From Dictyostelium discoideum (taxonomy: Eukaryota), in the NCBI GenBank assembly GCA_000004695.1, contig CM000152.2, positions 2,624,001-2,688,000 on the forward strand: 64,000 nt of DNA, written 5' to 3'. The notes beneath the pieces were generated by a model. It made no database searches, had not been told where the DNA came from, and worked only from the letters and a program-made list of their open reading frames with translations. Positions 3,144-63,858 of the stretch are shown piece by piece (the first letter of the stretch is position 1; each line of letters opens with the position of its first letter). A program made the translations under genes and the position numbers.

Positions 3144-3182
<39 letters not shown>

Positions 3183-3201
3183 TTTCAATTCATAATTTTC
3201 A

Positions 3202-4062: not shown

Positions 4063-4101
<39 letters not shown>

Positions 4102-4376
4102 TTAATAATTATTATTTATAAATTTATTTTAGTTTTGAAGCATGGTTACAAAATACAATTTGTGAAAAGAGTGGTAAAGAACGTGAGGATGAACTTTTAA
4201 AATATGAAAGTTTACCATATTATAAACTTGCACATCCACGTTCTGAACATTTAATACCAGTTTTTGTAGCAGCCGGTTGTGCATCACCAGATTCAAAAGG
4301 TGTTAGAGTACATGATTTTTGGAAAACACCAGTTTTTAGTGTTTCAAGTTATTTATTCAGTGAACCAAACAATTAA
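3202..4376 (+). CDS. Extradiol ring-cleavage dioxygenase, class III subunit B (LigB/DOPA-dioxygenase family); exons 3202..3516, 3623..4047, 4133..4376
   Basis: Translation contains SHGAPNLILD…, HGAWMP, VLASGGSVHNL, IPVFVAAG motifs typical of LigB/YgiD; GTAAGT donor at 3517, GTAAAT at 4048, acceptors (t)nAG at 3622 and 4132; phases consistent. Confidence 0.75.
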
Positions 4377-4469
4377 TAAATAAAAATAAATTATTTATTT
4401 TACACATATAATAATTGTTTTGTTTTTTTTTTTAAAAAATTTATTTATTTGTTTTTATTTTTTTATTTT

Positions 4470-6347
4470 TTAAAAATTAATAGAAAATAAAGAGTCATTA
4501 TCATAATCATCATTATTATTATTATTAAAATTTTGATAATCTTCTAATTTAATAAAAGGTAATAAACCAAATGATTCCCATAAAGGAATTTTATTTGGAT
4601 TATTATGATTTAAGAATTCTAAAATATTTAAAGATTGGAAATATTGACCTTCTAAAAGTTTATCAATTAAAATTTTATTTTCATTAGTGAAAATAGTTAA
4701 TTTTAATCCACCTAAATTTGAAAAATGTGAAATTAATTTTTTAGATAATGAATCACTTATATATGGTATTATGATAATTTGAAATAATACATAAAGTCTA
4801 TCACTATTTAAAATTATATCATCTGATGGTGATGATGATGATGATGGCAATGGCATACCTTTAAATTGTTGTTCATTTAAATTTATTTGACCAAAACCAT
4901 TTGAAAGTAATTTAAAAATATTATAATATTTAAATTGATTTAAACCAAAGATTAATTCAAAGAATGGATTAGTTTCAATACAATTTGAATGAGATAAAAG
5001 TTTTGCTAAACAATTTAATAATGTTGAACAATTAATTTCAAAAAATGAAATATTTGAAATGAAGAATAATAATTGTTTAATATTACCATCAATAAAATAT
5101 TTTTCAATAATTGATGATAATTCATTTAAATTTAATGGAATCTTAATTAATATATATTTGTTTGGGATTTTATATTTTTTTGAACATAATAAAACTGCCA
5201 AATCCTTTTCAATTTCATTATATTTTTTTAAATTATTTAATAAATAACTTGTAATTATTGAATTCTCACCAATCATATTACAAATTGAATTAAAATTTTT
5301 TAATAAATTATTATTATAATTATAATTATTATTATTTTTATTCTTTGATAATTTTACTAAATCATTAAAATTTTGAAATTTATAATTATTAAAATAATCT
5401 TTAAATTCTAATACCATTTTTAAAAATATTTTTCTATTCTCTATTGGTTTTGGTAAATCACAAAGAAAATCTAAATATATTTCATTGATATCAGGTGAGG
5501 TTGTTTTATAAAAATATTTATTTTTTAAAATTGGTAATAATAGTTTGAAAAGATATGGATATCCAATATGTTTATGATTTGGTAAAGATTTTCTTAATAA
5601 TAAAATACAACTATGATTATTTAATGGTTCATAAATTGCTGAAGGTCTTAAAATGTCTATCTTTTCATTGATTATATAAGTAACTAAATTTTCATAACCA
5701 AGATCTATTAAATCTGATATTTTATTTATTGTTAATGAAAAAGAGGTTAAATAATCATCAAAATACTTTAAATTATCATTCATAATTTTACATTTATAAT
5801 AATCATTTTCCATTAATTTTGGTTTAAAATAAATTTGATTTCTAATGATATCATTTTCTCTAATACATTTATATTTAAAAATGATTTTACTTTTTGTTGT
5901 TTTAAAAGAGTTTATATTAAATTCATTTAATTGAACATTATTCTTTTTTAACATTTCAATAATATAATCAGCATAATCTGGATCGTTAACTTCAAATGGA
6001 TTAATTGGTCTATTATTTGCAAATAATTTTAATTCTAACCATACAGTTTCATTCATTAATTTAAATAATGGTAACATTTGTTTATTAGTTTTAAAAATTT
6101 TTAAATTAATTATATCTGCCAATTCTTTTAATGAAATTCTTTCACCAAAAATTTCAACAATACTTGAATCATCTTTTTTAAATTTGAATTTAAATTTTGA
6201 AAATAATTTCTTTACTAAATTTAAATCATCATTTTCAATTGATACATTAATTAATTTACAAATTTTATTAAATGTTTCATTATTTCTTTTAAAAAATGCA
6301 TCATTATTTAACAAATTAAATAATTCATTCCTTATTTCATTTATTGA

Positions 6348-6407
<60 letters not shown>

Positions 6408-6968
6408 GTTATTATTATTATTATTATTATTATTAATATTATTATTATCATAAGAATTTAATAAAATTTCTATAATATCATCATTTGTTAATAAAATTTT
6501 AAAAAATTGATCATCACAATTAAATAACCACCTTAATTTATCAATTGATATAAATGGTATTAACTTGAATAAATGATTATTTTCACATTTTTCAATACCT
6601 TCTAATAATCTTGATTTAAAAGTAATACAAACTTTTTTAAATAAATCTATATCTAATTCTTTCCATTTTAATAACATTAAATATTGTTCCCAATTAAAAT
6701 CTAAATGAAATTTTATAATTTCATCATCATCATTAAAGTTTTTATTATTATTATTATTATTTATCAATAAATTTTTGGAATTTAAAAAATCATTAACTTT
6801 ATTTGATAATAATACTTGATTTTTTATTTTTATTATAAATTCTATTGATAATTCGTAATAGTTAAATCTTTCATAAAAAAGATTCTTATTTATTTTTTTT
6901 ATATTTTTAAATATTAAAAATCTTAAATATATATTTCTATAAACTTGTAAAAATAGATCTTCATTCAT
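4470..6968 (-). CDS. Hypothetical protein, 832 aa, with long poly-N tract; single exon
   Basis: Uninterrupted minus-strand ORF with Dictyostelium-like codon usage, A-rich upstream region; no recognisable domain. Confidence 0.6.
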
Positions 6969-6969
6969 T

Positions 6970-7015
<46 letters not shown>

Positions 7016-7221
7016 AAAAAAAAAAAAAAAAAAAAAGAAAAAAATAAGAAAAAAATTGAATATTTATTGATTACTTTTTATAAAAAATATCTGTTCAACA
7101 AATTTTTTTTTTTTTTATTAAACCATTTTATTTTTATTTTTATTTTTATTTTTTTTTTTTTTATTTTTTTTTTTTTTTTGGTTAAAGTATTAACAAGAAG
7201 TAAATAGTTTGCCTGTATCAA

Positions 7222-7854
7222 TTATTTTACTGCTTTCAACACTTTGGATTGTAATTGAAATGAATTGACCACTAATTGAATAATAATAATATTAGTTGGC
7301 CAATAATTATAAGTGGTTTGAGTTAGATTTACAAATTGTGAACTACCACTAAGTTTAATTGAAACTTGTTTTATATTAATTGCAGAATTAAAAATTAAAA
7401 AAGATGTCCAATAAGCATTACTTCCATCTTTCATCATAACTTTAACATTTCCAGTTACAGTACAGGGTACTTTTACATATGATAATCCATCTAATACACC
7501 CTTTGATTGTAATCCTAAAATTGAGAATGCATTTGGTGATAAACCAAAATGATTATCTCTTTGACAATATCCAGCTTCATTACATGAATCAGTGGCCATT
7601 ACTGTTACTGATGAACCATTAGAATTTGAAATTTTAAAACATTGGCCACATTGTGCACCTACAACAAATTTATTAAATAAAAATAATAATAATAATTTTT
7701 TAATGTTGATATTTTTTTTTTAAAAATTAATAAATTTAATTTATATTATAAACAAACCATTTTGATATAGCTTTGTACCTAATGCACAAATCAAATAATT
7801 TCCAGGACCAGTTGGGCCTGTCAACAAACCATATCCACAGTTTCCATTATCCAT
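7222..7854 (-). CDS. Expansin-like protein (DPBB domain), exons 7758..7854(+?) and 7222..7658; N-terminus/signal peptide not found, possibly pseudogene
   Basis: MDNGNCGYGLL…GAQCGQCFKISNSNGSSVTVMATDSCNEAGYCQ…; 99-bp AT intron 7659-7757 with GT…TAG; upstream ATG (7895) hits stop after 8 codons. Confidence 0.55.
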
Positions 7855-8002
7855 TGCACTATTGAAAGTAGCTGAAGCACCATTAATTGATGATATTGAT
7901 TTTAATCATTTTTTAAAATTTTTTTTTGTAAATATTTAATTGTTTTAAATTATTTTTTGATTAGGTGCTTTGAAAAAAAAAAATTTAAATGGTTTATATA
8001 GG

Positions 8003-8054
<52 letters not shown>

Positions 8055-8481
8055 TAGTATTTATAATTATATGAATTTAAAATTCATAATAATTAATTTA
8101 TAGATTTCAAGATTAAAGTTAAAATTAAACATTTAAGACAATATTTTTCCCCAAACAAAAATAAAATCCATTCTTTTAATTTTTTTTTTTCAAACAGCAA
8201 ATTCTGAAATTTCTTATATAATCTTTTTGAAAAATAAAAATAAATTAAAAGTTATTTATTTGTAATATATTGAGATAGGTATTTTTTTTTTTTTTGTTGT
8301 ATTTTTATTATTTTTATTTAAGTTTCAACAAATGATTTATAATTTAAAAACCAATATGGATAAAATGTTTAATTTACAATTTGTTTTTTAATTTTTCCTA
8401 AAGCTTTGAAAATACTATTTTTTTTTGAATTGGAATTGAAAATACTATCAATATCGCTATTAAAAATTAAATTTTCAACAA

Positions 8482-8553
8482 GTTTCGATAGCTCAGTGGA
8501 AGAGCAAGCGACTGCAAATCGTTAGGTCGCCAGTTCAATCCTGGTTCGGAACT
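8482..8553 (+). tRNA. tRNA-Cys (anticodon GCA)
   Basis: Cloverleaf: acceptor GTTTCGA/TCGGAAC, D-arm GCTC-AGTGGAA-GAGC, anticodon loop CTGCAAA, T-arm GCCAG-TTCAATC-CTGGT. Confidence 0.85.
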
Positions 8554-8666
8554 TTCATTTTTAATTTTTTATTTTGTTTTAAATGATTGCCCCCTCTGTT
8601 TCCTCTCGATTTATCATATTTTCATTAAAATCTGACCATATTTAAAAGAGATTCAGTCATTTTAAA

Positions 8667-8687
8667 GTAAAATTATTATAAAAAAAA
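8667..8687. repeat. Left target-site duplication of TRE3 element (gtaaaattattataaaaaaa)
   Basis: Identical 20-bp copy at 13936-13955 immediately after the element poly(A). Confidence 0.7.
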
Positions 8688-8851
8688 CCGTACCGCGATC
8701 AAGAGGATACAAGATAGACGTGAAAAGTAATTCATCCTTTTCTATCCTTAATCTCGGTCAATTTTAACCAATCTTTCAAAAAAAATCACCAATCCACCAC
8801 GATCTACAGATCTAACTTACCAAATCGCCGATTCAAAGGAATCCCATCGAG

Positions 8852-10105
8852 ATGAATTCCTACGCAGACGCGGCTAAAATGGCCAACCCCTCCACCCATA
8901 TGGACGAGGCATCAGAGAACTTCATTAAGGAATTCTCCACAAAAACAGCAGAGATAAAGGAGACCTACCCCAAATTATCAATAGGCCTCAAAGACATCTC
9001 CAAATACTGCGAGACCATATTGAACATGACTGCGCTCTCAACCTACGAGAAAAACAACGGATTCTACCCAATTACACTCGAATTCCCCAAAATGGATCTC
9101 ATGGGGTTAGAAGAAATGAGAAAAACACTCTCAAACTACGATATCCCAATCGACAAGATATACATAGGCAAAGGAACTAGAAAAATGATCCACCTGATGA
9201 TTAAAAACGAACAATCTCTCCTAAATATCATTAGAGATAGAAGCAAATTGGGAACCTTCATCACCTCCAGTAGAGACTACCACGTCCTCACAGGAAGAGT
9301 AAGAATTCCAAGAGAAAAGGCAGGAATAGTGGACGCCCTCATCAAAACTGCCTTTGCAGAAGAAATACCCTATGCAATATACCATACTATATACTCCACC
9401 GACCACCTCCTAGTATTCGGTCTAATAGAATGCAAAATAGGCGATCAAATGAAATCTGGCCAACACAATACAGAAATCGCCAACTTTACCATCAGAACGG
9501 CCACCAAAACCTACTCCTCACAAAAGAAAAATAAGAAAGTAGAGTCAAACAACACGGAAGAACCATTAGAAGATGAGATGACAGATGATCCTCCCAACAC
9601 CCAAAACAGGATAGCAATCAAATCCTCTCAACCAAAACCACAACAACAAACAAACAACCCAGCAAAAAATCAGTCTGATAAACAATCAACCCAAGAGAAA
9701 AAAGCCCAATCAAAAAAGCCCTCTCAACCTCTTCCCCCCAAAAACCAAGCAGAATCTCAATCTGTCAAACCCACCACAACCACTACCACAACATCCAACG
9801 CCATCCAAAAAGACAATGCCAACAAAACGAGCACTAACATCCATTCATCCTCGGAAAACAGAGAGAAGACACCAAACATCCCTCCATCACATAAACGCAA
9901 GAACGAGGAAATCCACTCAAACAACGAGGTCACCCAACTCTCACCAACAATAAACAGAAGCAACCCTTACATCCCATCCACCCCTAAGACACCTGTCAAA
10001 AATGAAAGGAAAGGAATCATTGAGAGCTTCATAGAGAGTATCTACCCTTCACCATCCAAACCGCAGCTATACGACTCCCAAGAGGAGATCGATATCATCT
10101 CATAA
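8852..10105 (+). CDS. TRE3 ORF1 (nucleic-acid-binding/Gag-like protein)
   Basis: 417-aa ORF, basic/Q,T,N-rich C-terminus; stop TAA overlaps next ATG (TAATG at 10103-10107). Confidence 0.7.
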   Translation: MNSYADAAKMANPSTHMDEASENFIKEFSTKTAEIKETYPKLSIGLKDISKYCETILNMTALSTYEKNNGFYPITLEFPKMDLMGLEEMRKTLSNYDIPIDKIYIGKGTRKMIHLMIKNEQSLLNIIRDRSKLGTFITSSRDYHVLTGRVRIPREKAGIVDALIKTAFAEEIPYAIYHTIYSTDHLLVFGLIECKIGDQMKSGQHNTEIANFTIRTATKTYSSQKKNKKVESNNTEEPLEDEMTDDPPNTQNRIAIKSSQPKPQQQTNNPAKNQSDKQSTQEKKAQSKKPSQPLPPKNQAESQSVKPTTTTTTTSNAIQKDNANKTSTNIHSSSENREKTPNIPPSHKRKNEEIHSNNEVTQLSPTINRSNPYIPSTPKTPVKNERKGIIESFIESIYPSPSKPQLYDSQEEIDIIS

Positions 10106-10953
10106 TGGTAGTAATCAAAATCAACCAATGGAATGTCAGAGGTTGGGGCACTGACACCTCCTTCAAAAACAAAACAGACTTTATCAAATCCCAATCCCCC
10201 CCAAACTCATTGGCACTAACCATAGTCAATGAACTCAACGCCGACGCAACACAAGCACACCAGCTATTTCCTGGCTCCATCATTAGCGCAACCAACAGAG
10301 GCAACGGAATAGGAATACTAAACCACAACAACCAAAACATAAAACTCTCACCAATATTCATAATAGAAGGTAGACTAATAATATCAGACATTCTAATAAA
10401 AGATACCACAACGAGAATCTTGGCCATATACGCCCCGGCCCAACCTGATAAAAGAAAAACACTAGCTTCAACACTAAACAAACACTTCAACAACCAATAC
10501 CACAACCTAACGTCTAACCCTAATAAAAACATCGACATCATAGCAGGCGACTTCAACTGTTTAGACTTCAATGACAATCACACATCAAATGATGACCAAG
10601 GCAACTTGACAACACAATCCCCAGATGAGATGGCCACAGTAATCGAAGCCATCAGAATTTCAAATAACCTAATGGATATGGACCAACTAAATAAAAGACC
10701 CACCTTCTCAAGAACGATACACAACACAAACAATAACCTCACAAGAATCTTGGAAAGGAGACTAGACAGAATATACCTTAACAATAGCATAATCAACTAC
10801 AGCCAATTATACTTAAGGAACCTAATCCCCCCAAAAATTAACAACATACCTCTATCAGATCACAACTTCCTATCAACCACCTTCACTCTACCCAACATAC
10901 AGATGAACATGCGCAGATGGAGATTAAAAAATCCTCAATCCTCTCAAGCATAA
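10105..10953 (+). CDS. TRE3 ORF2 N-terminal part: apurinic/apyrimidinic-like endonuclease domain
   Basis: WNVRGW…, IAGDFNCLDFNDNH, LSDHNFL motifs of L1-type EN; overlaps RT ORF by 37 nt. Confidence 0.7.
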   Translation: MVVIKINQWNVRGWGTDTSFKNKTDFIKSQSPPNSLALTIVNELNADATQAHQLFPGSIISATNRGNGIGILNHNNQNIKLSPIFIIEGRLIISDILIKDTTTRILAIYAPAQPDKRKTLASTLNKHFNNQYHNLTSNPNKNIDIIAGDFNCLDFNDNHTSNDDQGNLTTQSPDEMATVIEAIRISNNLMDMDQLNKRPTFSRTIHNTNNNLTRILERRLDRIYLNNSIINYSQLYLRNLIPPKINNIPLSDHNFLSTTFTLPNIQMNMRRWRLKNPQSSQA

Positions 10954-13808
10954 TGCTTAAGAAAATAGACTTCCTACTTAACGATTATTCAAGGGAGTTG
11001 TCATCCAACCATAACTCTATTTCCTTCTCTCAACTCAACAGCTTACTGAACAAAATAAAACAACTATACACAGAATTTCAAAAACAAAACGACTACAACA
11101 ATAAGGCAAACATCAAAAATCTAATCTCCCTACTAGAGACAGAATTTAAAGACCAAGCCTTCGCAACCCTTTCAGCAATAAATGAATCTAAAAGAAGAGA
11201 AGAACAACTTAAACAAGAATTGAACAACTATTGCGAAGAAACCTCACTCAAGTACATCTCCGCGAGAATCAAGAAAAGACATAATGATTTCACCATCAAC
11301 GCAGTAAAAGATGCACAAGGTAGAACAATTAACAAACAGGAATTGATCGAAGAAGAATACGTAAAATATTACTCAAATCTTTATGACTACAAAGAAGATG
11401 ACCCACCATCTCATTATGAAATGTTGGAAAATTGGACAGTGACCAGGGACTCAACATGGGACAACCTTGAAAACGAATTCACATCACAAGAGATCCTAGA
11501 AGTAATAAAACAATTGAACCCACACAAATCTCCAGGCCCAGATGGAATTCCAAACTTATTCTACATAACACACAAAGAAAAACTAGCTCCAATACTGGCC
11601 TCAGCATTCAACGACACTCTAAGAAATCCTCATCTAATTAGCAAAAATTACAAAGAAGGCCTCATTATCACGATACCTAAAAAGGGAGACCCCGAACTAA
11701 TCAAAAACAGAAGACCAATTACACTGGCCAACTGTATATATAAAATCCACTCAAAACTAATAAACAATAGAATAATCCCAATACTAACGAAAGTGATCAA
11801 CCACAATCAAAAAGGTTTCGTACCAGGCAGATTCATTCTAGATAATATCATATCAATGAACGAATTAATCAACTATTGTAATGATAAAAGAATAAACGGA
11901 ATAATTACACTATATGATTTCGAAAAAGCTTTTGACTCGATCTCACACGGTTCAATACTCAGATCACTACAACACATCAACATTCCAACCAATATAATCA
12001 ACCTGATAATGAATCTACTCACCAAATCTGAAGCAAGAATTGAAATTAATGGTAGAACTACTATACCCTTTGAGATCAAAAGAGGAGTTAAACAAGGAGA
12101 TCCACTATCACCCACCCTGTTCGTCCTTGTAATAGAGGCTTTAGCTAGAAAAATTTTACAAGATGACCGAATTACTGGCCTTCCTCTAAACAACAGCAAC
12201 CACAGAGAGAAATTCCAAAGCTTTGCAGACGACTCGGCTTCAATGGTCCCAGACTCTCAACAACTTGAATTAGTACTACAACACTTCAATTCATTTTGCA
12301 AAGCCACTTCCTCAAAACTAAACATCGACAAATCTTCATCAATTCTTATAGGCAACCCAGACAATACCAACCAAAGAATTCCAATATCTACAAATCCAGA
12401 AAGATACTTGGGATACTTCTTCACAGGCAAAGGGATAACAAGAAAAATGCCAGAAATATTAAACACAATAAGATCATCCTTAGTACTATGGAAAACCACT
12501 GACTCAACAATCAAAACCAAAACCAACATCCTCAAAGCATTCGCACTCTCTAAATTAACCTACTATTCATATGTAGAGAACTTTAAGGAAGAGGAATTAA
12601 ACCAAATCAATAAATTAGTCGAATGGTTTTTATCGGCACCAAACAACAAAAATGCTAGTGGATTTCAAGTTATTAATTTAATGAGAACCAAAAGAGCAAG
12701 ATACCCACTAAAAGTAGGAGGCTGGAACATTTGGAATATAGAATTGAGACAACTGGCGCAGAAACTTTGGATCATAAACCAGTTCATCCTAGCACTAGAA
12801 ACCAAACAAACAAACTCATCTCATCACAAAAGCTGGGAATATCAGATCCAAAAAAACAAATTCACATCCAGATACCTAAAAGAAAACTTAGACGAATGGA
12901 ACAAAATAAGAATAAAAAAAGCAATCTTCAACAATAATCTCACATCCATAAAAAACGAAAATGGACAACCACTTTCACTGGCAGAATGGTATACCACAAT
13001 TCAAGACCAAAATCCAACCATCCCTAAAACGGAATTCCAATCATCTCTAAACTTAAGAGGCTACAGCTATAATCAACTCTTCAACAATATACTGAAGATA
13101 AAAGACCCTAAAACAAGAGACACAATGTTTAGATTCCATGCCAGATGCCTTCCAATAAACTACCTTCACAACAAACAATGCCCACTCTGCAAAGAAGATA
13201 TGAGCAAAGACCCATACGGTCACCTGTTCTTCTCATGCAAGAAAACAAAACAATTCATAAAAATAAATAAACTCAAAAATTTCATCTTTATTACCACAGG
13301 CAAAGGTAAAAACTGGCACCATACAAGAATTAGGCAAAATAACAATTTCATTAATAGAATAACTCCAAAATTATCACCGACAGCCAAAAAAGATCAAGAA
13401 GTGAATGCAGATTACGCCAACCACAGATTCCACAAAGAATACTTTGAATGGAACTATAAAGCAATAGACTATGATCTAACCAGATCATTCGCATATAGAA
13501 ACCTAATGGCCCTTATCCTCCACAACATTTGGATTTGGATTTGCAATCAAATATACAGTGAAGATCCTTTAACAGATGAATCACTATCATACAGCTCCCT
13601 TCTAAAGAAATGGCACAAATTGGCCACTCTAGAATACATCAAAAAAGCAAAAGATCTGAAAAACTTATCAGCAAAAGACCATAATAACTTCAAAGATCCT
13701 AAGATCCTTCTCACTTCAACGATCAAGCTAAGAAAAACAACAGCTAATTACTATTGTATTCCAGAATCATCTCTCCCAAATATTATATCTTTTGATCAAT
13801 TCATATGA
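10917..13808 (+). CDS. TRE3 ORF2 reverse-transcriptase part (-1 frame relative to EN ORF)
   Basis: RT motifs PKKGDPE…RPITL, YDFEKAFDSISH, FADDSA; C-terminal Cys/His region. Confidence 0.75.
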   Translation: MEIKKSSILSSIMLKKIDFLLNDYSRELSSNHNSISFSQLNSLLNKIKQLYTEFQKQNDYNNKANIKNLISLLETEFKDQAFATLSAINESKRREEQLKQELNNYCEETSLKYISARIKKRHNDFTINAVKDAQGRTINKQELIEEEYVKYYSNLYDYKEDDPPSHYEMLENWTVTRDSTWDNLENEFTSQEILEVIKQLNPHKSPGPDGIPNLFYITHKEKLAPILASAFNDTLRNPHLISKNYKEGLIITIPKKGDPELIKNRRPITLANCIYKIHSKLINNRIIPILTKVINHNQKGFVPGRFILDNIISMNELINYCNDKRINGIITLYDFEKAFDSISHGSILRSLQHINIPTNIINLIMNLLTKSEARIEINGRTTIPFEIKRGVKQGDPLSPTLFVLVIEALARKILQDDRITGLPLNNSNHREKFQSFADDSASMVPDSQQLELVLQHFNSFCKATSSKLNIDKSSSILIGNPDNTNQRIPISTNPERYLGYFFTGKGITRKMPEILNTIRSSLVLWKTTDSTIKTKTNILKAFALSKLTYYSYVENFKEEELNQINKLVEWFLSAPNNKNASGFQVINLMRTKRARYPLKVGGWNIWNIELRQLAQKLWIINQFILALETKQTNSSHHKSWEYQIQKNKFTSRYLKENLDEWNKIRIKKAIFNNNLTSIKNENGQPLSLAEWYTTIQDQNPTIPKTEFQSSLNLRGYSYNQLFNNILKIKDPKTRDTMFRFHARCLPINYLHNKQCPLCKEDMSKDPYGHLFFSCKKTKQFIKINKLKNFIFITTGKGKNWHHTRIRQNNNFINRITPKLSPTAKKDQEVNADYANHRFHKEYFEWNYKAIDYDLTRSFAYRNLMALILHNIWIWICNQIYSEDPLTDESLSYSSLLKKWHKLATLEYIKKAKDLKNLSAKDHNNFKDPKILLTSTIKLRKTTANYYCIPESSLPNIISFDQFI

Positions 13809-13935
13809 TTAAAATAACCCTTCAGCTTAAATGATAAGCCTTTAAATAAATATTAAATAAAACTCGTATTAACACAGATGGACATATATCAATCTTGTTA
13901 ATCCAATATTAAAAAAAAAAAAAAAAAAAAAAAAA

Positions 13936-13955
13936 GTAAAATTATTATAAAAAAA
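13936..13955. repeat. Right target-site duplication of TRE3 element
   Basis: gtaaaattattataaaaaaa identical to 8667-8686. Confidence 0.7.
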
Positions 13956-14119
13956 TTGGAATTTCGGTAATAAAAAAAAAATAATAAAAAATAAAAATAA
14001 AATTAAAAAAAAAAATTTCGTTTTTTCAGTTGAAAATTAATTTCCCATTATTTTATTTTAATTTAGAAAACAAAATAAAAAAAGAAACTAAAATATAATT
14101 TTAAAGAGTTTTAAAGGAA

Positions 14120-15986
14120 ATGAGCGCAGCACCACCACCATCAATTTACACCGAATCATTTAGTACGAGTAGTAACAATACAACCGAATCAGAATCGATT
14201 AATGTTGAAGAAACTAGAGAGAATATATTATCAGGATTTTCATTTGAAGAGTATTTTCAAGTTTCAGAATCAATTTCAGTTATAATAAAAAATAATTTTA
14301 AAAAGATTGCTTTACAATTACCAGATTATCTATTATGGGCATCTTCAGAATTATCAAATAAAATTCAAAATAGTGTACCTTTAGAATATGGTATTAAAGT
14401 TTTCATTTTAGGTGATACTTCATATGGTTCATGTTGTGTTGATGAAGTAACTTCTTCACATTTAAAATCGGATTTTATAATTCATTATGGTCATTCTTGT
14501 TTATCACCGTAAGTATACTGAATTTTATGATAATATTATAAAAAACAAAAAAAAAAAAAAATAAAACAACAACAACAATATATTAATATAAAAATTGATA
14601 ATTTTTAGATCATCTAAAATACCAGTGCAATATGTATTTGGTAAAAAAAAAAATTTCAACGTTGATAAATTTTCAATAGAATTAAATAAATTGGTAGAAT
14701 CAAAAAAAGAAGAAAACTTTGTAATTTTTTATGATTTATTATATCATCATAATAGAGATTCAATTGAAAATCTTTATAAAAACAATGATAATATTATAGT
14801 TACAAATATAAATAATTTTAATAATATTTATTTAAATAATTCATTTAAAAATAATAAATTAAATGAAACTCAAAATTGTAATAATAATTATAATAATGAT
14901 TGTTGTGGTAGTGATAATAATAATAATAATAATGATAGTGGTTGTTGTGGAGGTAATAATAATAATAATAATAATAACAGTGGTTGTTGCCAATCACAAT
15001 CACAACAACAACAACAACAAAATGATTGTTGTCAACAAAAATTAAATAATGAAATTAATAATGAAAATGATAATAATAATGAAGAATTAATTTCAGGTAG
15101 GAAAATTGAATTTAAAAATGAAAAAGATATTAAAAAATTTAATTTTATATGGATTGGTGAAGAATCATTAACTTTAACCAATTTATTAATGAATTTTAAT
15201 CAACAAATGGTTTATAGATATTATATTGATGATAATAAATTACTTCAAGAAACATTACCAAGAAATAAAAGTTTAATGAGAAGATATCATATTTCCGAGA
15301 AATGTAAAGATGCATCAATCATTGGTATTGTGGTATCAACATTATCAGTTCAAAAGTATTCAGAAACAATCGATGGTTTAAAGAAATTAATTATAGCCAG
15401 TGGTAAGAAACCATACGTTTTCGTTGTTGGTAGATTAAATGTACCAAAATTAGCAAATTTCTCAGAGATTGATATCTATGTAATCGTTGCTTGTCACGAG
15501 AATACAATGGTTGATTCAAAAGATTTCTATAAACCAATTGCAACACCATTCGAATTAAATCTTTCACTAAGAAATGAAAAATGGACAGGTGAATATATAA
15601 CTGATTTTGGTAGAGTTTTCCCAAAATTAATTAAAGATTTATCTTTTGATGAAGATGATGAAAATAAATGTGAAATACCAGAAGATCAAGTTGAAGATGA
15701 TCAAGGTAATATTCATCATTTCTCATTAGTAACTGGTAGAATTGTTATTCAAAATAAAAATCAATCAACACTTCAACAACAACAACAACAACAACAAACT
15801 CAACAATCAGGTGATTTAATATCAGTTAATAATCAATTTAAACAGGTTTCATTAGTTGGTGAACATTTATCAAATAAAACTTATAAAGGTTTAGATATGA
15901 GAATTGGTGAAACACCTGTAACCACTGCAATAGAAGGAATGTCTGGTATACCAAAGAATTATAATACTGATAAAAATAATTTATAA
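14120..15986 (+). CDS. dph2: Diphthamide biosynthesis protein 2 (2-(3-amino-3-carboxypropyl)histidine synthase subunit 2); exons 14120..14508, 14609..15986
   Basis: [35 protein letters not shown] signature of Dph1/Dph2 family; GTAAGT donor 14509, acceptor tttttAG 14608, phase 2 junction consistent; long N/Q insert typical of Dictyostelium. Confidence 0.8.
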
Positions 15987-21963: not shown

Positions 21964-22040
21964 AATTACCTTATTAATTTCAGCAGCCATATTAATTTCA
22001 GCATGTACATAGCTGCCAAAATTAATATGGTAATTTTGGC
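21964..22040. repeat. Palindromic repeat family 2 unit (…aattaccttattaatttcagcagccatattaatttcagc…), abutting gap
   Basis: Matches inverted units at 23683-23860 and 24497-24640. Confidence 0.6.
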
Positions 22041-22396
22041 ATAGAAAAAAAAAAAGTCAAAGTCATTTAATTAATAATCATCTCAAATATAAACAAAATT
22101 TTAGTACTAAAATTAATATTATTATTATTTTTATTTTAATAATTATAATAATAAAAAAAAAAAAAAAAATTTTCATATTATTTTATTTATATCTTTTATT
22201 TATTTTTATCTTTTTATTTTTATTATTAATTTTATAATTTATTTTCATTTCTTTTTTTTTTAGTTGATATATATTTTTTTATTATTCATTTATTTCTAAG
22301 GCTAACAAAAAAAAAAAATTAAAAATAAAAAAAAAAAATAAAATAAAAAAAAAAAAAAAAAAATTAAAATAATTTTTTTTTTTTAATTTTTTTTTT

Positions 22397-23152
22397 TTAA
22401 TTATCTACTCTTCTACTTACTCTTTTGTTACTAACAGATGAAGTTTCGTTTGAAAATCTTTTGGTGAAAAAATCAGCATCAGATTGTAATTGATTAGCTC
22501 TTTTTTTACCCGTTTTGTTTTTGTTTGATTGAGTTGTGATTCCACCATTATTGGAAGTTGTTGCAGCTTCATGTGTTGATCTAACTTCGGTGGTAGAGTG
22601 CTCGATTGCTTTTCCAACTAGGTCATCTGTTGATTTTCTTTTGGTTATTTCGATATCCCTTTGCAATTTATTTTTACTTGAGAGTTTGGTGGCCTCTATT
22701 CTAGAAGTAGGCTCAGTATTGTAATAAGCCTTTATAATAGCAGAATGATTATCTGCTTTATAATGATTACTGATGTGCTGTTGACACTGGTTTTGATTAA
22801 TCATATGAGAGACACCATCTTCATCTTTGTTAAGCCTAACCTTCTCTATAATCTTCACTAAGTCTTTTGGGTACCAATTTTTTCTTTTTATCTTTATCAA
22901 TATAAAACACTTCTTTAATAGTTGCCGTACCATATTCTACATTCTCAACAACATACTGTTTATCCAAAATGTTTTTCCAATAGCTTATATTTTGTCCACT
23001 CAATTTGGTATTATGAAATTTATAATCTATTTTAAATTTTACATCTTCGTCATATTTTTCCAAGAGTTTTTTTAATTTATTTTTATTATTTTTTCAATTT
23101 CTGTTGCAGAAAGTTGATTATTTAATTTATTGTCTTTACTGAAGACCATTTT
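22397..23152 (-). pseudogene. Hypothetical K/N-rich protein gene interrupted by frameshifts/stop in A-runs (three overlapping ORF pieces)
   Basis: ORFs 23152→23075, 23063→22836 and 22933→22397 are collinear but in different frames; frame switches fall at homopolymer A tracts. Confidence 0.4.
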
Positions 23153-23682
23153 TTGGAACGAAAACTTTAAAAAAATAAAAAAATAAAAAAAAAAATACTT
23201 TTTTTTTTTAATTTTTTATTTTTATATTTTTTTTTTTATATTTTTTTTTTTTAAATTTTTTTTTTTAATTTTTTTTTTTTATTTTATTTTTTTTAAGTTT
23301 CGAACAATTATATATAAAAAAAAAGTAAAAGATATCCCTTCGGTTAATTAAATAATAATAATAATAATAATAATAATATAATAATAATAATAATAATAAT
23401 ACTTATTTCGAAATGTTTAAACAATCATACAGTTTAAAATTAAATAAATTGTTTTAAACCACCACTTTTTTTGAACACATGAAAATAAATAAGATATAAA
23501 AATAATAAGATAAAAAAAGATTTTTTTTTTTTTTTTTTTTTTATTTTATAATTATTCTTGTCGTCAGTATTGTTACTATAATTAATCCCATGAGTTTTTT
23601 TTATTATTATTTTTAATTCTTTTATATTTGAGATGATTATTATTAATTAAATGACTTTGAGTTTTTTTTTTTATATTTCTAT

Positions 23683-23860
23683 GCCCAAAATTACCATATT
23701 AATTTCAGCAGCCATATTAATTTCAGCCTAAAATAGTTGGTCTGTGCATGCCAAAATTAATATGGCTGCTGAAATTAATATGGTAATTCTAGCAGACATA
23801 AGTCCCATGCCAAAATTACCATATTAATTCCAGCAGCCATATTAATTTTGGCATGGGACA
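23683..23860. repeat. Palindromic repeat family 2, complete composite copy (three alternating inverted units)
   Basis: gcccaaaattaccatattaatttcagcagccatattaatttcagc … reverse-complement unit … direct unit. Confidence 0.65.
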
Positions 23861-24227
23861 TGCAACATAAAATTTTTATTGCCATTGATTAATTTTTTAG
23901 GTTTTTTTATTTTGTTTTTTTTTTAATTTTTTAAGTAGAAGTATTTTTAAAAAATTAATAAAAAACGAAGGTTAAATAAATAAAAATTAGAGCCAGTTTT
24001 CCCTCAAAATAAAAAAGGCTATTTTCAATACGTCCTGGTGAAAAATTTCACAACAACCTCATACTGTTTATGTATTGCACATTATCATATTTATTTTTAT
24101 TATTCATTGTGTGTCTCAAGACCTTATAAAATTGACAGATATCTCTTTTTGAAAAATCTATTTTTATTTATAATTTTTTTTTTTTTTTTTTATTTACTCT
24201 AATAATTTTTTATAAATTTCCTTGATA

Positions 24228-24500
24228 CTATTTTTCCTCGATAATCTTAAAACAATTCCAAGGATATACACATGGGCTATTGTTGAATTGTTGTTTACAA
24301 GAAGGTGATTTATAAATTTGGATATTACTTGTTATTGGAATTCCTTCGGTTTGTATATCGTCAACATATATAACACTAACACTTGGTGGTATTTCATATA
24401 TTTTTTGATCGAATCCATCCAATAAAAAAAGTGAGGAAACACCTGGTGGTATTGAACCACCCGATAATGGTTTTTTAATAGCTCCAACATATAATGTTTG
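24228..24500 (-). pseudogene. FNIP-repeat exon fragment (B-box/FNIP family, divergent subtype like 48370..48830), 5' part replaced by palindromic repeat
   Basis: …LYVGAIKKPLSGGSIPPGVSSLFLLDGFDQKIYEIPPSVSVIYVDDIQ…YKSPSCKQQFN…; no B-box exons upstream. Confidence 0.6.
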
Positions 24501-24640
24501 CCCCATGCCAAAATTAATATGGTAATTTTTAGGAGCCATATTAATTTCAGCATGCATATACAACCTGTTTTTAGGCTGAAATTAATATGGTAATTTTAGC
24601 CTGCTGGAATTAATATGTTGAAATTGGCATGGAACATATA
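24497..24640. repeat. Palindromic repeat family 2 copy inserted into FNIP exon fragment
   Basis: catgccaaaattaatatggtaatttttaggagccatattaatttcagcatg… with inverted partner. Confidence 0.6.
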
Positions 24641-51496: not shown

Positions 51497-51506
51497 GATT
51501 CGAACC
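51497..51506 (-). promoter_or_regulatory. External B box (exB, GGTTCGAATC) downstream of tRNA-Glu
   Basis: Perfect B-box consensus 30 bp 3' of tRNA, outside a foldable tRNA; Pol III T-run terminator directly after tRNA (51531-51534). Confidence 0.55.
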
Positions 51507-51535
51507 TGCGACTTTTGGTCTCCCTGATTAAAAAG

Positions 51536-51607
51536 CTCCCCATTCGGGAATCGAACCCGAGGTACCAGTGTGAAAGACTAGAGTGTTACCGACTACACCA
51601 ATGAGGA
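51536..51607 (-). tRNA. tRNA-Glu (anticodon UUC)
   Basis: TCCTCAT-TG-GTGT-AGTCGGTA-ACAC-T-CTAGT-CTTTCAC-ACTGG-TACC-TCGGG-TTCGATT-CCCGA-ATGGGGA-G; all stems pair. Confidence 0.85.
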
Positions 51608-58866: not shown

Positions 58867-59540
58867 TAGATAACAAACCAAAACCATCAATTTCACTATT
58901 TGCAAATAAAACAAGGAAAGGAAGAGAGAATAGATCAATATTATATTACCTTTTAATATCAATTAAAAATCAAATATCAAATGATGATTTTTTAATTATG
59001 GAACAATTAGTAACTATATGTTTTAAATTATATAGTGACTCTTTTGATGAAAATGATTTAAATTCACTTCAAGTATTAATTGAATCATTTAATGCAAAAG
59101 TAAATTTAATTACTGAAACAGAAATAATGAATTTCCACTTGTTGTTACATTATCCAATCTATATAAAAAATTGGGGTGCACCAAAATACACTTCAGCTGA
59201 AACTTTTGAAGCACAATTATCAAGAATTAAAAATTATTTAAATAATAATACAAATAATAGGGATGAACAATATGAAAGGGTTACCAAATTAAACATGGTG
59301 AAATTTTTTAATTCAGTAGATAAATTAAAAAGTATTGAGCCTGAAAGTACAGCATTAATTATTGGTAACAAAATAAAAAATCCAGGTAATATAGATAATA
59401 TAAAAATTAAATTAGATTCATTATTTCAAAATTATAAAAATATAACTTTTCACTCATCAATTAAAAATAATAAAGAAATATACAATATTGGTGATGCAGT
59501 TGAAGTTGCATCAGATAATGAACTTTCAGGTATGTTGTAG
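58867..59540 (+). CDS. Hypothetical protein, 5'-partial (ORF open from gap edge), ends at MITE-like insertion
   Basis: Frame open from 58867 through Met 58998 to stop 59538-59540; stop lies 5 nt into repeat copy starting 59534. Confidence 0.45.
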
Positions 59541-59632
59541 GGAATTTTCCATAAAATTTCACTACAGTAGCGTAGTGAATTTTATTATTTAATTTCACTA
59601 CAGTAGCGTAGTGAAAAAAAAAAATCACTGAC
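59534..59632. mobile_element. MITE-like family 1 copy (gttgtagggaatttt…cactacagtagcgtagtgaa ×2 …aaatcactgacc)
   Basis: Reverse complement aligns with 35709-35812; possibly terminal repeat region of adjacent Tdd-4-like transposon. Confidence 0.5.
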
Positions 59633-59735
59633 CTTAAATTTTTTTTTTTTTCAAAAAACAAATAAAGTTTATTAAATTGAAATTTTATTTTTTGTTTTAA
59701 TTATTATTTTATTTATTTTTATTATAATTATTGTT

Positions 59736-59774
<39 letters not shown>

Positions 59775-59914
59775 CAATTTTTTTTTTTAAATTTTTTTCA
59801 TTTTTTATTTGTTTATTAAATTGTATTTTTATTTTTTGTTTTAATTATTATTTTATTTATTATTATTGTTAATTTTTTTTTTTTTTCAATTTTTTTTTTT
59901 TTAATTTATTTTTA

Positions 59915-60310
59915 TTAATTTATTTTTATTAACTCCCTGAGTTGTTCAATTGCTTGATTTACCATATCACTGTAAACACTGCACACAATTGAATTTTTTC
60001 TAGCTTTGTTACCTCTGGTGCATTTGATGTTTTTGCATTTTCCTTTGTATACAAAAAAGTCCAAATATAATTCGTTTTCTATTACAGTTTTTACACAATG
60101 TTGGTGAAATTGTTTTGATTTTAATTCTAATGCTTCTAACATCATATTTGAATTTTTAACGATTAAAGCATCACCACTATTTACATATAGTACTTTGGCT
60201 GCTTTTTCGAGGAATTTAGTCAAATTTTCCTCTGAATCTAACTATTCTTCATTGCCATATTCAATGGCTAAATTTCTTAAGAGTTTTATCGAATCTATTA
60301 ATTCTTCGAT
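59915..60310 (-). pseudogene. Transposon-associated small ORF (MIEELIDSIKLLRNLAIEYGNEE*LDSEENLTKFLEKAAK…CKNIKCTRGNKARKNSIVC…) with in-frame TAG
   Basis: Minus ORF 59915-60223 extends upstream in frame through a stop at ~60245. Confidence 0.3.
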
Positions 60311-60549
60311 CATTCTTTTTTTTTGAAATTTTTTTTTATTTTGTTTTTTCAATTTTTTTTTTTTATTTTGTTTTTTCAATTTTTTTTAAGTTTTATTTTT
60401 TTTTATTTTTTTTTATTTTTTTTAACAAATGTAATTTTTTTTTATTTTTTTCAATTTTTTTTTTTTTTTAATTTTTAATTTTTTTTTTTTTTTTTAATTT
60501 TTTGTGTTGATTTGTGTTTTTTTTGTTTTTTTGATTTGGCCACTTGTTT

Positions 60550-63500
60550 TTATTTTCTAATTTCCCCATACCCCCTTCTATTAATTGCAACCAAATCAAG
60601 TTCTAATTTTTGTGTCCTTGTTAACTTTGTTTTTGCAACTTTTTTTGAAGGTATCACATTAACGATTTTTCCTATTGATGGTGATTTGGAAGGTGATTTA
60701 AATGGTGATTTAAAAGGTGAATTGGAAGGTGATTTAAATGGTGAATTGGAAGGTGAAATGGATGGTGATTTGGAAGGTGATTTAAATGGTGATTTGGAAG
60801 GTGATTTAAATGGTGATTTAAATGGTGAATTGGAAGGTGAAATGGATGGTGATTTGAGAGGTGATTTGGATGGTTTAGAATGTGATTTTAAAGGAGGTTT
60901 ATTAACAATTGGTATCTTATGAGGACGGCCTCTGAGACGTTTAACAGTTGTTACTATACCACTACCAGATTGTGGTATAGTATACGATGGTATTATTTGC
61001 ACTTGAGGTATTGGTGGTACTATTTCTTTTAAATTCATATCCTTTCTCAAACAATTCATTAAATTTGGCGCTGTTGGATTATTATTTAAAAATGGGAGTA
61101 TTTCTTCTTGTTCCATTTCATTATTGAGTTTGTGTTGAAATGGATTATCGTTAATGATAGGTGGAATATTTGATGGATTGTTAAGAGCATCTTCCAAAAC
61201 CCTAAATGGATCATTTTGTGTTACCAATTGATGCAAGTTGAAATTGGATAAATCCTTACCAAGATTTTTAATAAACTGAACCAGAAATTCAATAACTTTC
61301 CCATCATTATTTAAATAAAGACCAGAAGTAAAAGAATCAATATCTTTTTGTATGTTTGGCGATGTTCTAAAAATATCAACTGTTGATTGTTTATAAAGAA
61401 CCAACTTGTTACCTCCTACAAAACCAGAGTATAAACCTTTTTTTTGAAGGCTATTGATTCCATCTTCCAAAAATTCAAGTTTATAAAGTTGTTTAGTGTC
61501 TTCCTGTATTACCTTATGAATTTTACACAAAATCAATATTTTCTATTAGAATTAAATATAAAATTTGTTAATTATTACTGTTTCATATATTATTAATCTT
61601 TATGTTTTAATTACTTACATTATTTTTTTTAATTTCTAGAAAGAGTACAGTATCACCAACTTTCAATCCCTTTGGTGGTTTTGAATTCCATTGATTTTGG
61701 TAACTTGTGAGATTTTCAAGAATAATAGCTGTTCTTTCTTCTTTTGAAACATCTGAAACACCAATTGATTGAGAGTCTTGTTCTGATTGAACATTAATAA
61801 ACAAAGGAACAATACCAACAGCTTGAGATGGTGTCATTTTAATTGTTCTTGTTTTTGTATTATTGTAATCATACAAAGCTTGTTTTAATAGTTCAGAAAG
61901 AGACCTAGAAGTACCATCAAGAAAACTAAAATTTATTTATAAATGATTAATTAATAAACATATCGATAATTTATATTGTTCACAATATCATACTCTTGTT
62001 GTTTTAATTTTGAGATCCTCTCCTTGATAGTTCGATTCAATCTTTCTACCATACCTTGAGTTGTTGGTGTACGAGGAGCTCCATGTGCTGACTTGGAGCC
62101 TGGAAAAAGTTTTAGGAATTCTTTTTGGACTTTGTTTTTAAATTCACGTCCATTATCGCAGTGCCATACTTTCACAGGTTTGCCAAAGTACGTGAGAGCC
62201 AAAAAATTGTATATGGGAACTGTTCTCTTTGTTGTCAAACATCTAAAAAATAAATGATAATTAAAATAAAAAAAGAAAACTAATAAATTAATAAATAAAA
62301 AATAAATACCTTCCAGTAGCAAATTTTGTAAAAGAATCTATGCATAGAATAATGTAAACAACATCGGTGTCGTACGGTTGTACAGAGTCATATTGGATAA
62401 GATCATCTAGTTTAGTTAGTATCTTTTCATTATCATCATCGTATGTAACTTTTTCTTTATGTTCACCTTTAATTGATGTTAAATCATAAACCAATCTTGA
62501 GTATTCCTCGGTATCTACAATTGGAGCAAAATCCTTTGTTATACCTATTAATTTATTTAAATTATTAAAAGAGTTTTAATATAAAAGTTACAAAACATCA
62601 TATAAAAATGATTGATACCAAACCTTTTATTCTATTTCGTTGGCAAATGTCACACGTATCTACTGCATCAGATACAAAAGAATACAATCCCATATTATAA
62701 TATTTAGTCTTGTAGTTCCCATAGGTTGCATCTCTTCCTACACAGCGAAGAAAAAACCACCTTTAAATTCGCTTTAAATTAAATTTAAATTTGCTTTAAA
62801 GTCCTGAATTAAAGCAATTTTAAAGGTAATTTTAAAGGTAATTTTTAAGGTTACTTTAAAATCACCTTAAAAATTACCTTTAAAATTCCTTTAAAAATTA
62901 CTTTTTTAATCGCTTTAAAAGCGAGGTCCTGAGTTCGAAGCCGTTATTTAACGGATAAATTTTTTAAAATTTTTTTTTTAATTTTTCAAAAAATTACCAA
63001 AAGGGATTCGATCCCCCGACCCTCTATCAAAGGGTAGTCTCATCAACCATTACACCATTTGATTGCTTTGATGAAAATTTAAAAATGATAGAATATTTTA
63101 TCCCCATTTTTTTGTTCTAAAATTAGATCTTTTTTATTAAAAACCTTAAATTTATGTTTAAAGGAAATTTAAATTCACTTTAAATCTACTTTAAATCTAC
63201 TTTAAATTCTATTTAAAATTAATTTAAAATAAATTTTAAAGGTATTTTTAAATATCTTAAAAATTATCTTAAAAATTACCTTAAAAATCACCTTTAAAAT
63301 CACCTTTAAAATCACCTTTAAAATTGCTTAAAAATTTATTTTAAAGCAAATTTTAAAGGCATTTTTAAATATCTTTAAAATTACCTTAAAAATTACCTTA
63401 AAAATGAATTTTTTAAACGCGGCTTTAAATTCAATTTAAATCCAATTTAAATCAACTTTTCTTTAAATTTGCTTTAAAGGTGCATTTTTCTTTGCTGTGT

Positions 63501-63808
63501 ATATGACCTTTATGCATTTCTTCCCAGAGTGATACCATTCTATAATCATTAATTACTTCTAAACACACTTCTTTTGATATATTTCTATCTCCGCCACAAT
63601 TCATGACTTTTTTTTCAATTCTAAATAATTTTTCTTTTCTGTTTCTGTTTTTTATTGGTCAGAATTTAAAAAATGATTGTGTTATTGTAAGGAAAAATAT
63701 TTACTCATCATGTAAAAATTTATAATTTTTATGTTTAGTATTTTCAAAATTATTATCTTCAATAAATTTTAAATAATTTATAATTTCATTTATTTTATCT
63801 TGTTTCAT
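60550..63808 (-). CDS. Integrase-type (retroviral-like HHCC zinc finger, DDE core, SH3/chromo-like C-terminus, AT-hook and SPxK repeats) transposase of a Tdd-4-like DNA transposon; ≥5 exons; coding sequence interrupted by 717-bp insertion (62762-63478)
   Basis: Exon 1 MKQDKINEIINYLKFIEDNNFENTKHKNYKFLHD|EIEKKVMNCGGDRN…LWEEMHKGHIHSK [insertion] RCVGRDATYGNYKTKYYNMGLYSFVSDAVDTCDICQRNRIK|G ITKDFAPIVDT…VVYIILCIDSFTKFATG|R CLTTKRTV…VWHCDNGREF…HGAPRTPTTQGMVERLNRTIKE…; introns with GTAAAT/GTTTGG/GTATTT donors, phase-consistent; A-rich promoter upstream of ATG 63808. Confidence 0.6.
62762..63478. mobile_element. Inverted-repeat element (TTTAAA-word-rich arms ~62762-62930 and ~63110-63478) with tRNA-like/B-box core, inserted between HH and CC of the transposase zinc finger
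   Basis: Arms are reverse complements (…tttaaaggtaattttaaaggtaatttttaagg… / …ccttaaaaattaccttaaaaatcacctttaaa…); termini ctttaaa…tttaaag; core has GGTCCTGAGTTCGAAGCC (+) and GGGGGATCGAATCCC (-) B-box-like motifs and a perfect anticodon-arm-like hairpin ACCCT-TTGATAG-AGGGT. Confidence 0.45.
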
Positions 63809-63823
63809 TTTGGGAAAATGAAA

Positions 63824-63858
<35 letters not shown>

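Follow-up and report, generated by a model that had tools for sequence, protein, structure and literature searches.

In Dictyostelium discoideum, the retrotransposon TRE3 integrates on the downstream side of tRNA genes, at a distance of 40 to 150 bp and with the orientation of the gene (PMC5911963), guided by an internal or external B box (PMC5911963, PMC5006619). The intragenic B box of this species has the consensus GTCnnnnGTTCRAnYC (PMC3159450), and 61% of the genuine tRNA genes carry a TRE (PMC5006619). The DNA transposons of the same genome comprise only three families, one of which is the DDT class, whose transposases resemble nothing known (PMC5633606). We examined a 64,000-nucleotide stretch of this genome (GCA_000004695.1, contig CM000152.2, positions 2,624,001 to 2,688,000 of the forward strand; here called the window), in which positions 62741 to 63499 hold a 759-bp transposon with a tRNA-like centre. 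It is very probably a non-autonomous, CACTA-like cut-and-paste element sitting in a copy of the DNA transposon Tdd-4, with tRNA-derived cargo that would act as a weak landing pad.

The element is bounded by terminal inverted repeats (TIRs) of 28 bp that begin with CACAGC. The left TIR (CACAGCGAAGAAAAAACCACCTTTAAAT) lies at 62741 to 62768 on the plus strand, and its terminus is also found on all other copies; the right TIR (CACAGCAAAGAAAAATGCACCTTTAAAG) lies at 63472 to 63499 on the minus strand. Searching the 64-kb window with the TIR pattern returned exactly these two matches, in inverted orientation, with zero expected. Within them, CACAGCGAAGAAAAAACCACCTTTAAA at 62741 to 62767 (plus strand) has its inverted counterpart, with 3 mismatches, at 63473 to 63499. 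The flanking sequence (...cttccTA/CACAGC and GCTGTG/TAtatga) shows a TA target-site duplication (TSD), with the left copy at 62739 to 62740 and the right copy at 63500 to 63501. A preliminary description of this DNA had placed the limits at 62762 and 63478 and so missed the TIRs, the true ends being 21 bp farther out on each side; its reading of the segment as an insertion is borne out by the TIRs, the 2-bp duplication, and an empty paralogous site. The longest internal open reading frame (ORF) is 37 amino acids long and consists of repeat-derived sequence, and the element therefore has no coding capacity.

The host is a Tdd-4 DNA transposon on the minus strand, which extends from 59531 to 64000 and runs off the end of the window. 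It was recognized by its Pfam Integrase_H2C2 and rve domains, its TIR, and its identity to proteins of D. discoideum AX4. The host protein is 92 to 97% identical to several of these, among them DDB_G0282919, which has been named Tdd-4 (PMC12405889). The host TIR of about 240 bp (59533 to 59774) and the inferred insert-free length of about 3.85 kb compare with a TIR of 260 bp and a length of 3,839 bp for the published Tdd-4 (PMC2836005). The host gene contains introns, and the insertion splits its zinc-finger exon (...HKGHI/GRDATYG...); the reading frame is restored when 62741 to 63499 is removed together with one TA. The corresponding empty site exists in L001, a 23-kb locus from another D. 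discoideum assembly. There, in an internally deleted Tdd-4 copy, window positions 62094 to 62740 and 63500 to 64000 are contiguous and share a single TA (14421 to 14422), aligning to 13776 to 14422 and 14421 to 14905 with 99.8% and 96% identity, respectively. A second, independent empty site was found for the copy at L001 18285 to 19043, which has an AT duplication; it lies at L001 7344/7345. The insertion in the zinc-finger exon has inactivated this copy of the Tdd-4 transposase gene.

The element belongs to a homogeneous multicopy family. The compared loci, about 130 kb of transposon-rich sequence, held 12 core-bearing copies, all in D. discoideum transposon clusters and most of them 98 to 99% identical. 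Besides the window copy, L001 contained four full-length copies (97.9 to 98.6% identity) and one truncated copy, locus L010 contained four full-length copies (92 to 99%), and locus L005 contained two variants that are shorter and more diverged, with lengths of 546 bp and about 490 bp. The same core is present in all 12 copies and retains 87 to 99% identity across the 759-, 546-, and ~490-bp variants while the arm length varies. A 2-bp TSD was present on nine of the 10 intact copies (TA on six, and AT, GC, and GT on one each), and the remaining copy is flanked by TC and TA; the flanks are also nonmatching in two diverged intact derivatives, L001 5085 to 5466 and L005 4084 to 4629. The first of these (382 bp) and a 325-bp derivative at L010 5012 to 5336 have the CACAGC termini and the subterminal words but lack the core, indicating that the core is not needed for mobility. 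Within the window itself, a permissive blastn search with the element for a second copy gave only AT-rich noise. With TIRs, a TSD of fixed length, empty sites, homogeneous and noncoding copies, and a related long element, the 759-bp element is a non-autonomous TIR transposon resembling a miniature inverted-repeat transposable element (MITE).

The related long element is complete in locus L006 (5218 to 10251). It is 5,034 bp long, has CACAGC termini and a TG/TG duplication, and encodes an 814-amino-acid ORF as well as a second gene. At their left end, the long-element copies in L001 (6529 and 17476) have exactly the 28-bp sequence of the right terminus of the 759-bp element, while the termini of the intact copy in L006 are closely related but diverged. 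The 12-mer words are confined to the subterminal regions of the 5,034-bp element. The commonest form of the 814-amino-acid protein (P0021) has 20 member sequences. A profile built from 15 members of this protein family was searched against 1.84 billion representatives and found about 60 remote relatives with E values of 1e-8 to 1e-3. When 10 of these relatives were scanned, four had Pfam Transposase_21 (tnp2, the transposase family of CACTA/En-Spm elements) above the cutoff and one had DUF4218 just below it. The CACTA-Mirage-Chapaev (CMC) superfamily is defined by CAC... termini, a 2- to 3-bp duplication, and subterminal repeats. We consider it likely that the present family lies near this group, as suggested by its CAC... 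termini, 2-bp TSD, 12-bp subterminal repeats, and remote tnp2 relatives.

The window also carries part of such a long element. Positions 58867 to 59540 hold a C-terminal fragment of a DDT-like 814-amino-acid protein (ORF 58998 to 59540), into which Tdd-4 has inserted at about 59531. Since Tdd-4 cuts this fragment and the 759-bp element in turn cuts Tdd-4, the nesting is three deep. The C-terminal part of the Tdd-4 protein (60550 to 61536, minus strand) contains a long Ser/Pro/Lys-rich repeat (KSPSKSPFKSP...), whose repeat number differs between the Tdd-4 copies in the window and in P0001.

The arms that flank the core are arrays of TTTAAA-containing words 11 and 12 bp long, as shown by Tandem Repeats Finder (TRF; periods 11/12/24) and repeat-family analysis. 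The left arm, delimited at 62769 to 62905 by the TRF periods and an inverted-repeat search, consists of 11- to 12-bp subterminal repeats; the right arm (63140 to 63471) has such repeats in both orientations (TRF; repeat families D1 to D4), with the motif at element positions 493 to 655. The two are unequal, at about 165 bp on the left and about 360 bp on the right, and the unique core between them is 230 bp long. The motif [AT][CT]CTT[TA]AAAAT has 17 matches in the 64-kb window, 15 of which lie inside the 759-bp element, on both strands. The left arm also holds a 96-nucleotide near-perfect palindrome (62809 to 62904) with 47-nucleotide arms that are 87% complementary and 0 nucleotides apart, and whose RNA fold has energies of -35.9/-42.5 kcal/mol (z of about -10). 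Folded as single-stranded DNA, the whole element reached -131.8 kcal/mol, compared to -75.1 ± 4.6 kcal/mol for shuffled sequences (z = -12.3). The motif concentration, the palindrome, and this z value indicate that the repeat-armed structure is real and far beyond chance. Rfam microRNA (miRNA)-precursor models gave matches to the left arm that were all far under their gathering scores, as a result of the arm being a long AT-rich hairpin.

The centre of the element is, to judge from its sequence, tRNA-derived and B-box-bearing. On the minus strand, 62994 to 63064 is a degenerate tRNA-like sequence with an anticodon GAU (Ile). Its alignment to the Rfam tRNA model is full-length (model positions 1 to 71), with 6 of 7 pairs formed in the acceptor stem, 3 of 4 in the D stem, and 5 of 5 in the anticodon stem. 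The anticodon arm (63019 to 63035), ACCCT-CTATCAA-AGGGT with the loop UUGAUAG, is a perfect 5-bp/7-nucleotide hairpin. The minus-strand B box, GTCGGGGGATCGAATC at 63005 to 63020, has one mismatch to the consensus (GaTCGAATC, with an A at tRNA position 54). Directly 3' of the tRNA-like sequence is a T6 run (62988 to 62993, minus strand, ...TTTTGGTAA TTTTTT G); a T run of this kind is read as a terminator of RNA polymerase III (Pol III). Upstream of the tRNA-like sequence, a nonrepetitive spacer at 63065 to 63139 is conserved in all copies.

The plus strand carries a further tRNA-like fragment in the opposite orientation, about 60 bp downstream of the tRNA-like sequence. Here, GAGGTCCTGAGTTCGAAGCC at 62923 to 62942 is a T-arm fragment that ends just past a second B box, and GAGGTCCTGAGTTCGA matches 15 of 16 bases of the T arm of D. 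discoideum tRNA-Thr. This plus-strand B box, GTCCTGAGTTCGAAGC at 62926 to 62941, represents a partial T arm and has the tRNA-internal GTC signature and one mismatch to the consensus; in the copies at L001 10168 to 10183 and 15862 to 15877 it is perfect (GTCCTGAGTTCGAATC). Directly upstream of it, 62911 to 62923 form the hairpin CGCTT-TAA-AAGCG, which is present in all copies except that its first stem base is either C or G, and which is possibly the remnant of an anticodon arm. On the other side, CCGTTATTTAACGG at 62941 to 62954 (plus strand) folds as (((((....))))), is invariant in all copies, and is followed by T runs at 62959 to 62986. The 64-kb window has six B-box matches with at most one mismatch, compared to 0.91 expected; of the four outside the core, one is part of the real tRNA-Cys gene and another is the external B box of tRNA-Glu.

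The core is a poor tRNA all the same. With the Rfam tRNA model, whose gathering score is 29, it reached only 14.8 bits, owing to a T arm that is one base short and to the A at position 54. ARAGORN found no tRNA in the core of the window copy, and the minimum-energy fold of the core (z = -0.27) is not a cloverleaf. The only copy in which ARAGORN called a tRNA was the variant at L005 11914 to 11985, a tRNA-Ile(GAT) with one extra G in the T stem. Comparison of the core with five Dictyostelium tRNAs gave at most 59% identity, and exact 24-mer scans for the tRNA-like sequence in bacterial and archaeal genomes, viral contigs, and metagenomes found none. A scan of metagenomes with the TIR pattern gave one chance match, in a bacterial FtsH-like gene. 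Several statements of the preliminary description hold up against these data: the arms do consist of TTTAAA-containing words in inverted orientation, the centre does have two convergent B-box-like motifs and a perfect anticodon-arm-like hairpin, and it does not make a complete tRNA.

One natural insertion bears on whether the core retains any activity. The truncated copy in L001 (19321 to 19922, approximately element positions 759 to 157) ends exactly at the start of a full-length non-long-terminal-repeat (non-LTR) retroelement. The retroelement has the same orientation as the tRNA-like sequence of this copy and starts 96 bp beyond the 3' end of that sequence. The remaining 156 bp of the copy are expected on the far side of the retroelement, beyond the limits of L001. 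In the whole of L001, ARAGORN detected no tRNA gene. Elsewhere, this retroelement follows tRNA genes: it begins 126 bp behind tRNA-Cys in the window, and in locus L008 its distance from an intron-containing tRNA is 61 bp. Its position in L001 fits the published TRE3 rule, which hints at a remaining capacity of the core to recruit Pol III factors; an insertion placed at random in the 23-kb locus would, by our own rough estimate, have a chance of about 1% of falling in such an interval. We conclude that the core is tRNA-derived passenger DNA that may, weakly or occasionally, be a TFIIIC/Pol III platform.

Genuine tRNA genes in the window and in L008 show arrangements known for this species. In the window, tRNA-Cys(GCA) lies at 8481 to 8554, and the full-length non-LTR retroelement follows at 8681 to 13808, 126 bp downstream and in the same orientation; it has a 417-amino-acid ORF1 and an RVT_1-containing ORF2 and is TRE3-type by position. 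tRNA-Glu(TTC), at 51535 to 51607 on the minus strand, has a perfect external B box, GTCGCAGGTTCGAATC, on the same strand about 23 bp downstream (51497 to 51512), matching the arrangement described for most D. discoideum tRNA genes. In L008, two TRE3-type elements stand head to tail (2930 to 13180) downstream of one intron-containing tRNA gene; such a "TRE-TRE tandem" has been described (PMC5391098). An exact-protein look-up for further TRE3 copies found only the locus in the window and one tandem.

Our preferred interpretation is that the 759-bp element is mobilized in trans, presumably by the 814-amino-acid protein of its 5-kb relative, for which the 12-mer subterminal words would serve as binding sites. 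The centre is tRNA-derived cargo that has persisted in several structural variants of the family, most likely as passenger DNA that still serves as a weak landing pad for TFIIIC/Pol III, to which these factors are predicted to bind. Several observations weigh against this interpretation. The 814-amino-acid protein has no direct Pfam or PDB sequence match, its AlphaFold model (predicted local distance difference test [pLDDT] score of 35) is unusable for a fold search, and the CACTA-like placement draws on the remote profile matches (E values of 1e-8 to 1e-3) and on the anatomy of the ends. The single loci compared from D. firmibasis and D. cf. discoideum (L002 to L004, one locus each) contained no copies. 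The tRNA likeness is itself poor, for the reasons given above. A retrotransposon stands beside the core in only one of the 12 core-bearing copies, the other 11 being intact. Among the nine full-length copies, the nucleotide diversity of the tRNA-like part (pi = 0.019) is not reduced relative to the rest of the element (0.015 to 0.031), and covariation and constraint tests detected no selection on the cloverleaf, in which private substitutions break stem pairs and are not compensated. The lack of a Pfam or PDB match agrees with the published remark that the proteins of Dictyostelium DNA transposons resemble no known transposase (PMC5633606).

The same data bear on the alternative that the core is a selected, functional part, namely, a mobile Pol III/TFIIIC site that could insulate, give rise to a small tRNA-like RNA, or lure tRNA-targeting retrotransposons as a decoy and that has been kept because it is useful to the element or to the host. 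We think this unlikely. It would explain why the core has survived in variants of all three lengths despite the changes in the arms, why the GTC signature is found in both B boxes (perfectly matched to the consensus in two copies), why a T6 terminator directly follows the tRNA-like sequence, and why a TRE3-type element has inserted beside one copy with the canonical spacing and orientation, a position with a chance of about 1% by our rough estimate. However, derivatives without the core exist in L001 and L010, conservation is not in excess and compensatory changes are absent, and the TRE association is limited to one copy in 12. It is likewise doubtful that the transposon spreads a "decoy tRNA gene," such that the core would assemble TFIIIC and TFIIIB and each copy would offer a new landing pad for tRNA-gene-targeting retrotransposons. 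Of the options offered in the preliminary description, a Pol III-type unit hitchhiking inside a transposon comes closest to the interpretation preferred here: the tRNA-derived, B-box-bearing core within a TIR element stands, while its Pol III activity would be presumptive.

The other identities that might be given to this DNA conflict with the structure of the element. A true tRNA gene, perhaps with an intron, that happened to have an AT-rich repeat block on either side would account for the full-length alignment to the tRNA model, the B box, the T6 terminator, and the ARAGORN call in one variant. However, the tRNA-like sequence moves with both arms as a TIR-bounded unit of 759 bp with 2-bp TSDs at many unrelated sites, and the window copy fails ARAGORN and reaches half of the Rfam gathering score. 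To our knowledge, moreover, eukaryotic nuclear genomes normally decode Ile by AAU and UAU anticodons, not by GAU. The copy family and the empty sites rule out such a gene, to which we give next to no credence. No more credible is a tRNA-derived short interspersed nuclear element (SINE), that is, a Pol III-transcribed retroposon copied via RNA. The element is short and noncoding and has a tRNA-like core with A/B-box-type promoter elements, as such a retroposon would, but it has TIRs, a fixed 2-bp TSD in place of a variable one, and ends shared with a 5-kb DNA transposon, and there is no poly(A), A-rich, or long interspersed nuclear element (LINE)-derived 3' tail. Furthermore, the tRNA-like part is internal and T6 terminated, so that the arms would necessarily be missing from any Pol III transcript. 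This end structure rules out a SINE, and the SINE-like label of the preliminary description has to be dropped.

A Drosophila-type Foldback (FB) element, or the D. discoideum element thug-S, is a very unlikely identity as well. The arms of short, tandem, inverted words and the strong foldback potential (z = -12.3) speak for it, and the earlier term "foldback element" remains apt for the shape. FB elements have 9-bp duplications and consist almost entirely of TIRs made of tandem subrepeats. Here, in contrast, the TSD is 2 bp, the arms are unequal, and there is a unique core of 230 bp; the arms are the subterminal repeats of a CACTA-like family, not of an FB-type one. The multicopy family and the folding energy show that the sequence is neither unique nor unstructured. 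As for thug-S, miRNAs are known to arise from its hairpins (PMC4894637), but their published sequences (miRNA_can_D3, PMC4894637) map to window positions 21964 to 24554 and not to 62741 to 63499. In that region, hairpin words (AATTACCATATTAATTTCAGCAGCCATATTAATTTCAGC...) match miRNA_can_D3 5p/3p (PMC4894637) at five places with one or two mismatches. The thug-S-like element at 21964 to 24554 is unrelated to the 759-bp element.

With these identities set aside, the non-autonomous, CACTA-like transposon probably belongs to the DDT class (DDT-A, DDT-B, and DDT-S), in which DDT-A is presumably about 5 kb long and DDT-S is presumably a short derivative; these would correspond to the 5,034-bp and the 759-bp elements, respectively. 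The repeats of the D. discoideum genome were reportedly catalogued by Gloeckner in 2001. The present family has probably been catalogued already, and there is a good chance that the element has a published name. The statement in the preliminary description that it is not a described Dictyostelium repeat is therefore doubtful, given 12 core-bearing copies in about 130 kb and an autonomous relative that fits the DDT class (PMC5633606).

As a repeat, the element carries little weight, being one more copy of an abundant noncoding transposon nested in another. If its core does recruit Pol III factors, it would reveal the extent of tRNA gene sequence that TRE3 targeting requires, and it would be a case of one transposon class creating targets for another. 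If decoy tRNA cores are indeed spread in this way, they could help to build nested transposon clusters at chromosome ends and might give each copy a small transcript made by Pol III or the role of a chromatin boundary. A practical consequence is that element copies corrupt public gene models. The NCBI gene ACTFIT_001978 (P0002; L001 10001 to 13307) is a chimeric model that takes its start codon from a copy of the 759-bp element, at a site shortly before the tRNA-like sequence, giving the N terminus MGIKYSIIFKF. The counterpart in the window is the ORF at 63107 to 63027, which likewise begins with MGIKYSIIFKF and whose ATG at 63107 on the minus strand lies in the spacer. A second element copy (L001 11068 to 11826) is annotated in ACTFIT_001978 as intronic sequence within a Tdd-like integrase gene.

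The element can be compared with four known systems. Like the genuine D. discoideum tRNA genes, which are targets of TRE5, TRE3, DGLT-A, and Skipper-2, the core has an internal B box (here with one mismatch) that bears the GTC signature, a terminator-like T run, and a second B box downstream, and it has one TRE3-type insertion beside it at the canonical distance and orientation (PMC3159450, PMC5911963). However, its cloverleaf is degenerate, it is mobile and multicopy, and its TRE association is 1 in 12 compared to 61%. Its second B box also has the opposite orientation to the tRNA-like sequence; in tRNA-Glu of the window, gene and external B box share one strand. A further likeness is found in the B-box-bearing sites on the ribosomal DNA (rDNA) element, which are not functional tRNA genes and are nevertheless targeted by a tRNA-gene-targeting retrotransposon (PMC3159450, PMC5391098). 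Those sites have fixed positions and were established by experimental integration profiling, whereas the present site rides on a DNA transposon and is marked by a single natural TRE3-type insertion.

Among DNA transposons, the family shares with the DDT class its species and a putative transposase without direct resemblance to known ones (PMC5633606), but equating the 759-bp element with DDT-S is unproven, and thug-T is an alternative candidate name. In comparison with CACTA/En-Spm elements (dSpm and CACTA MITEs), the differences are a TSD of 2 bp (preferentially TA, but also AT, GC, GT, and TG) in place of the usual 3 bp, a terminus that reads CACAG rather than CACTA, a Dictyostelium protein that falls under every Pfam threshold, and a tRNA-derived core, which CACTA elements lack. 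The similarities are the CAC termini, a very short TSD, subterminal repeats of about 12 bp in both orientations that lie no more than a few hundred bp from either end, and a large putative autonomous partner with two genes, one of whose products has remote relatives that carry tnp2. These features of the ends, the TSD, the 12-mers, and the tnp2 relatives suggest that the hitherto unclassifiable DDT-like transposons of Dictyostelium have a place near the CACTA/Mirage/Chapaev group.

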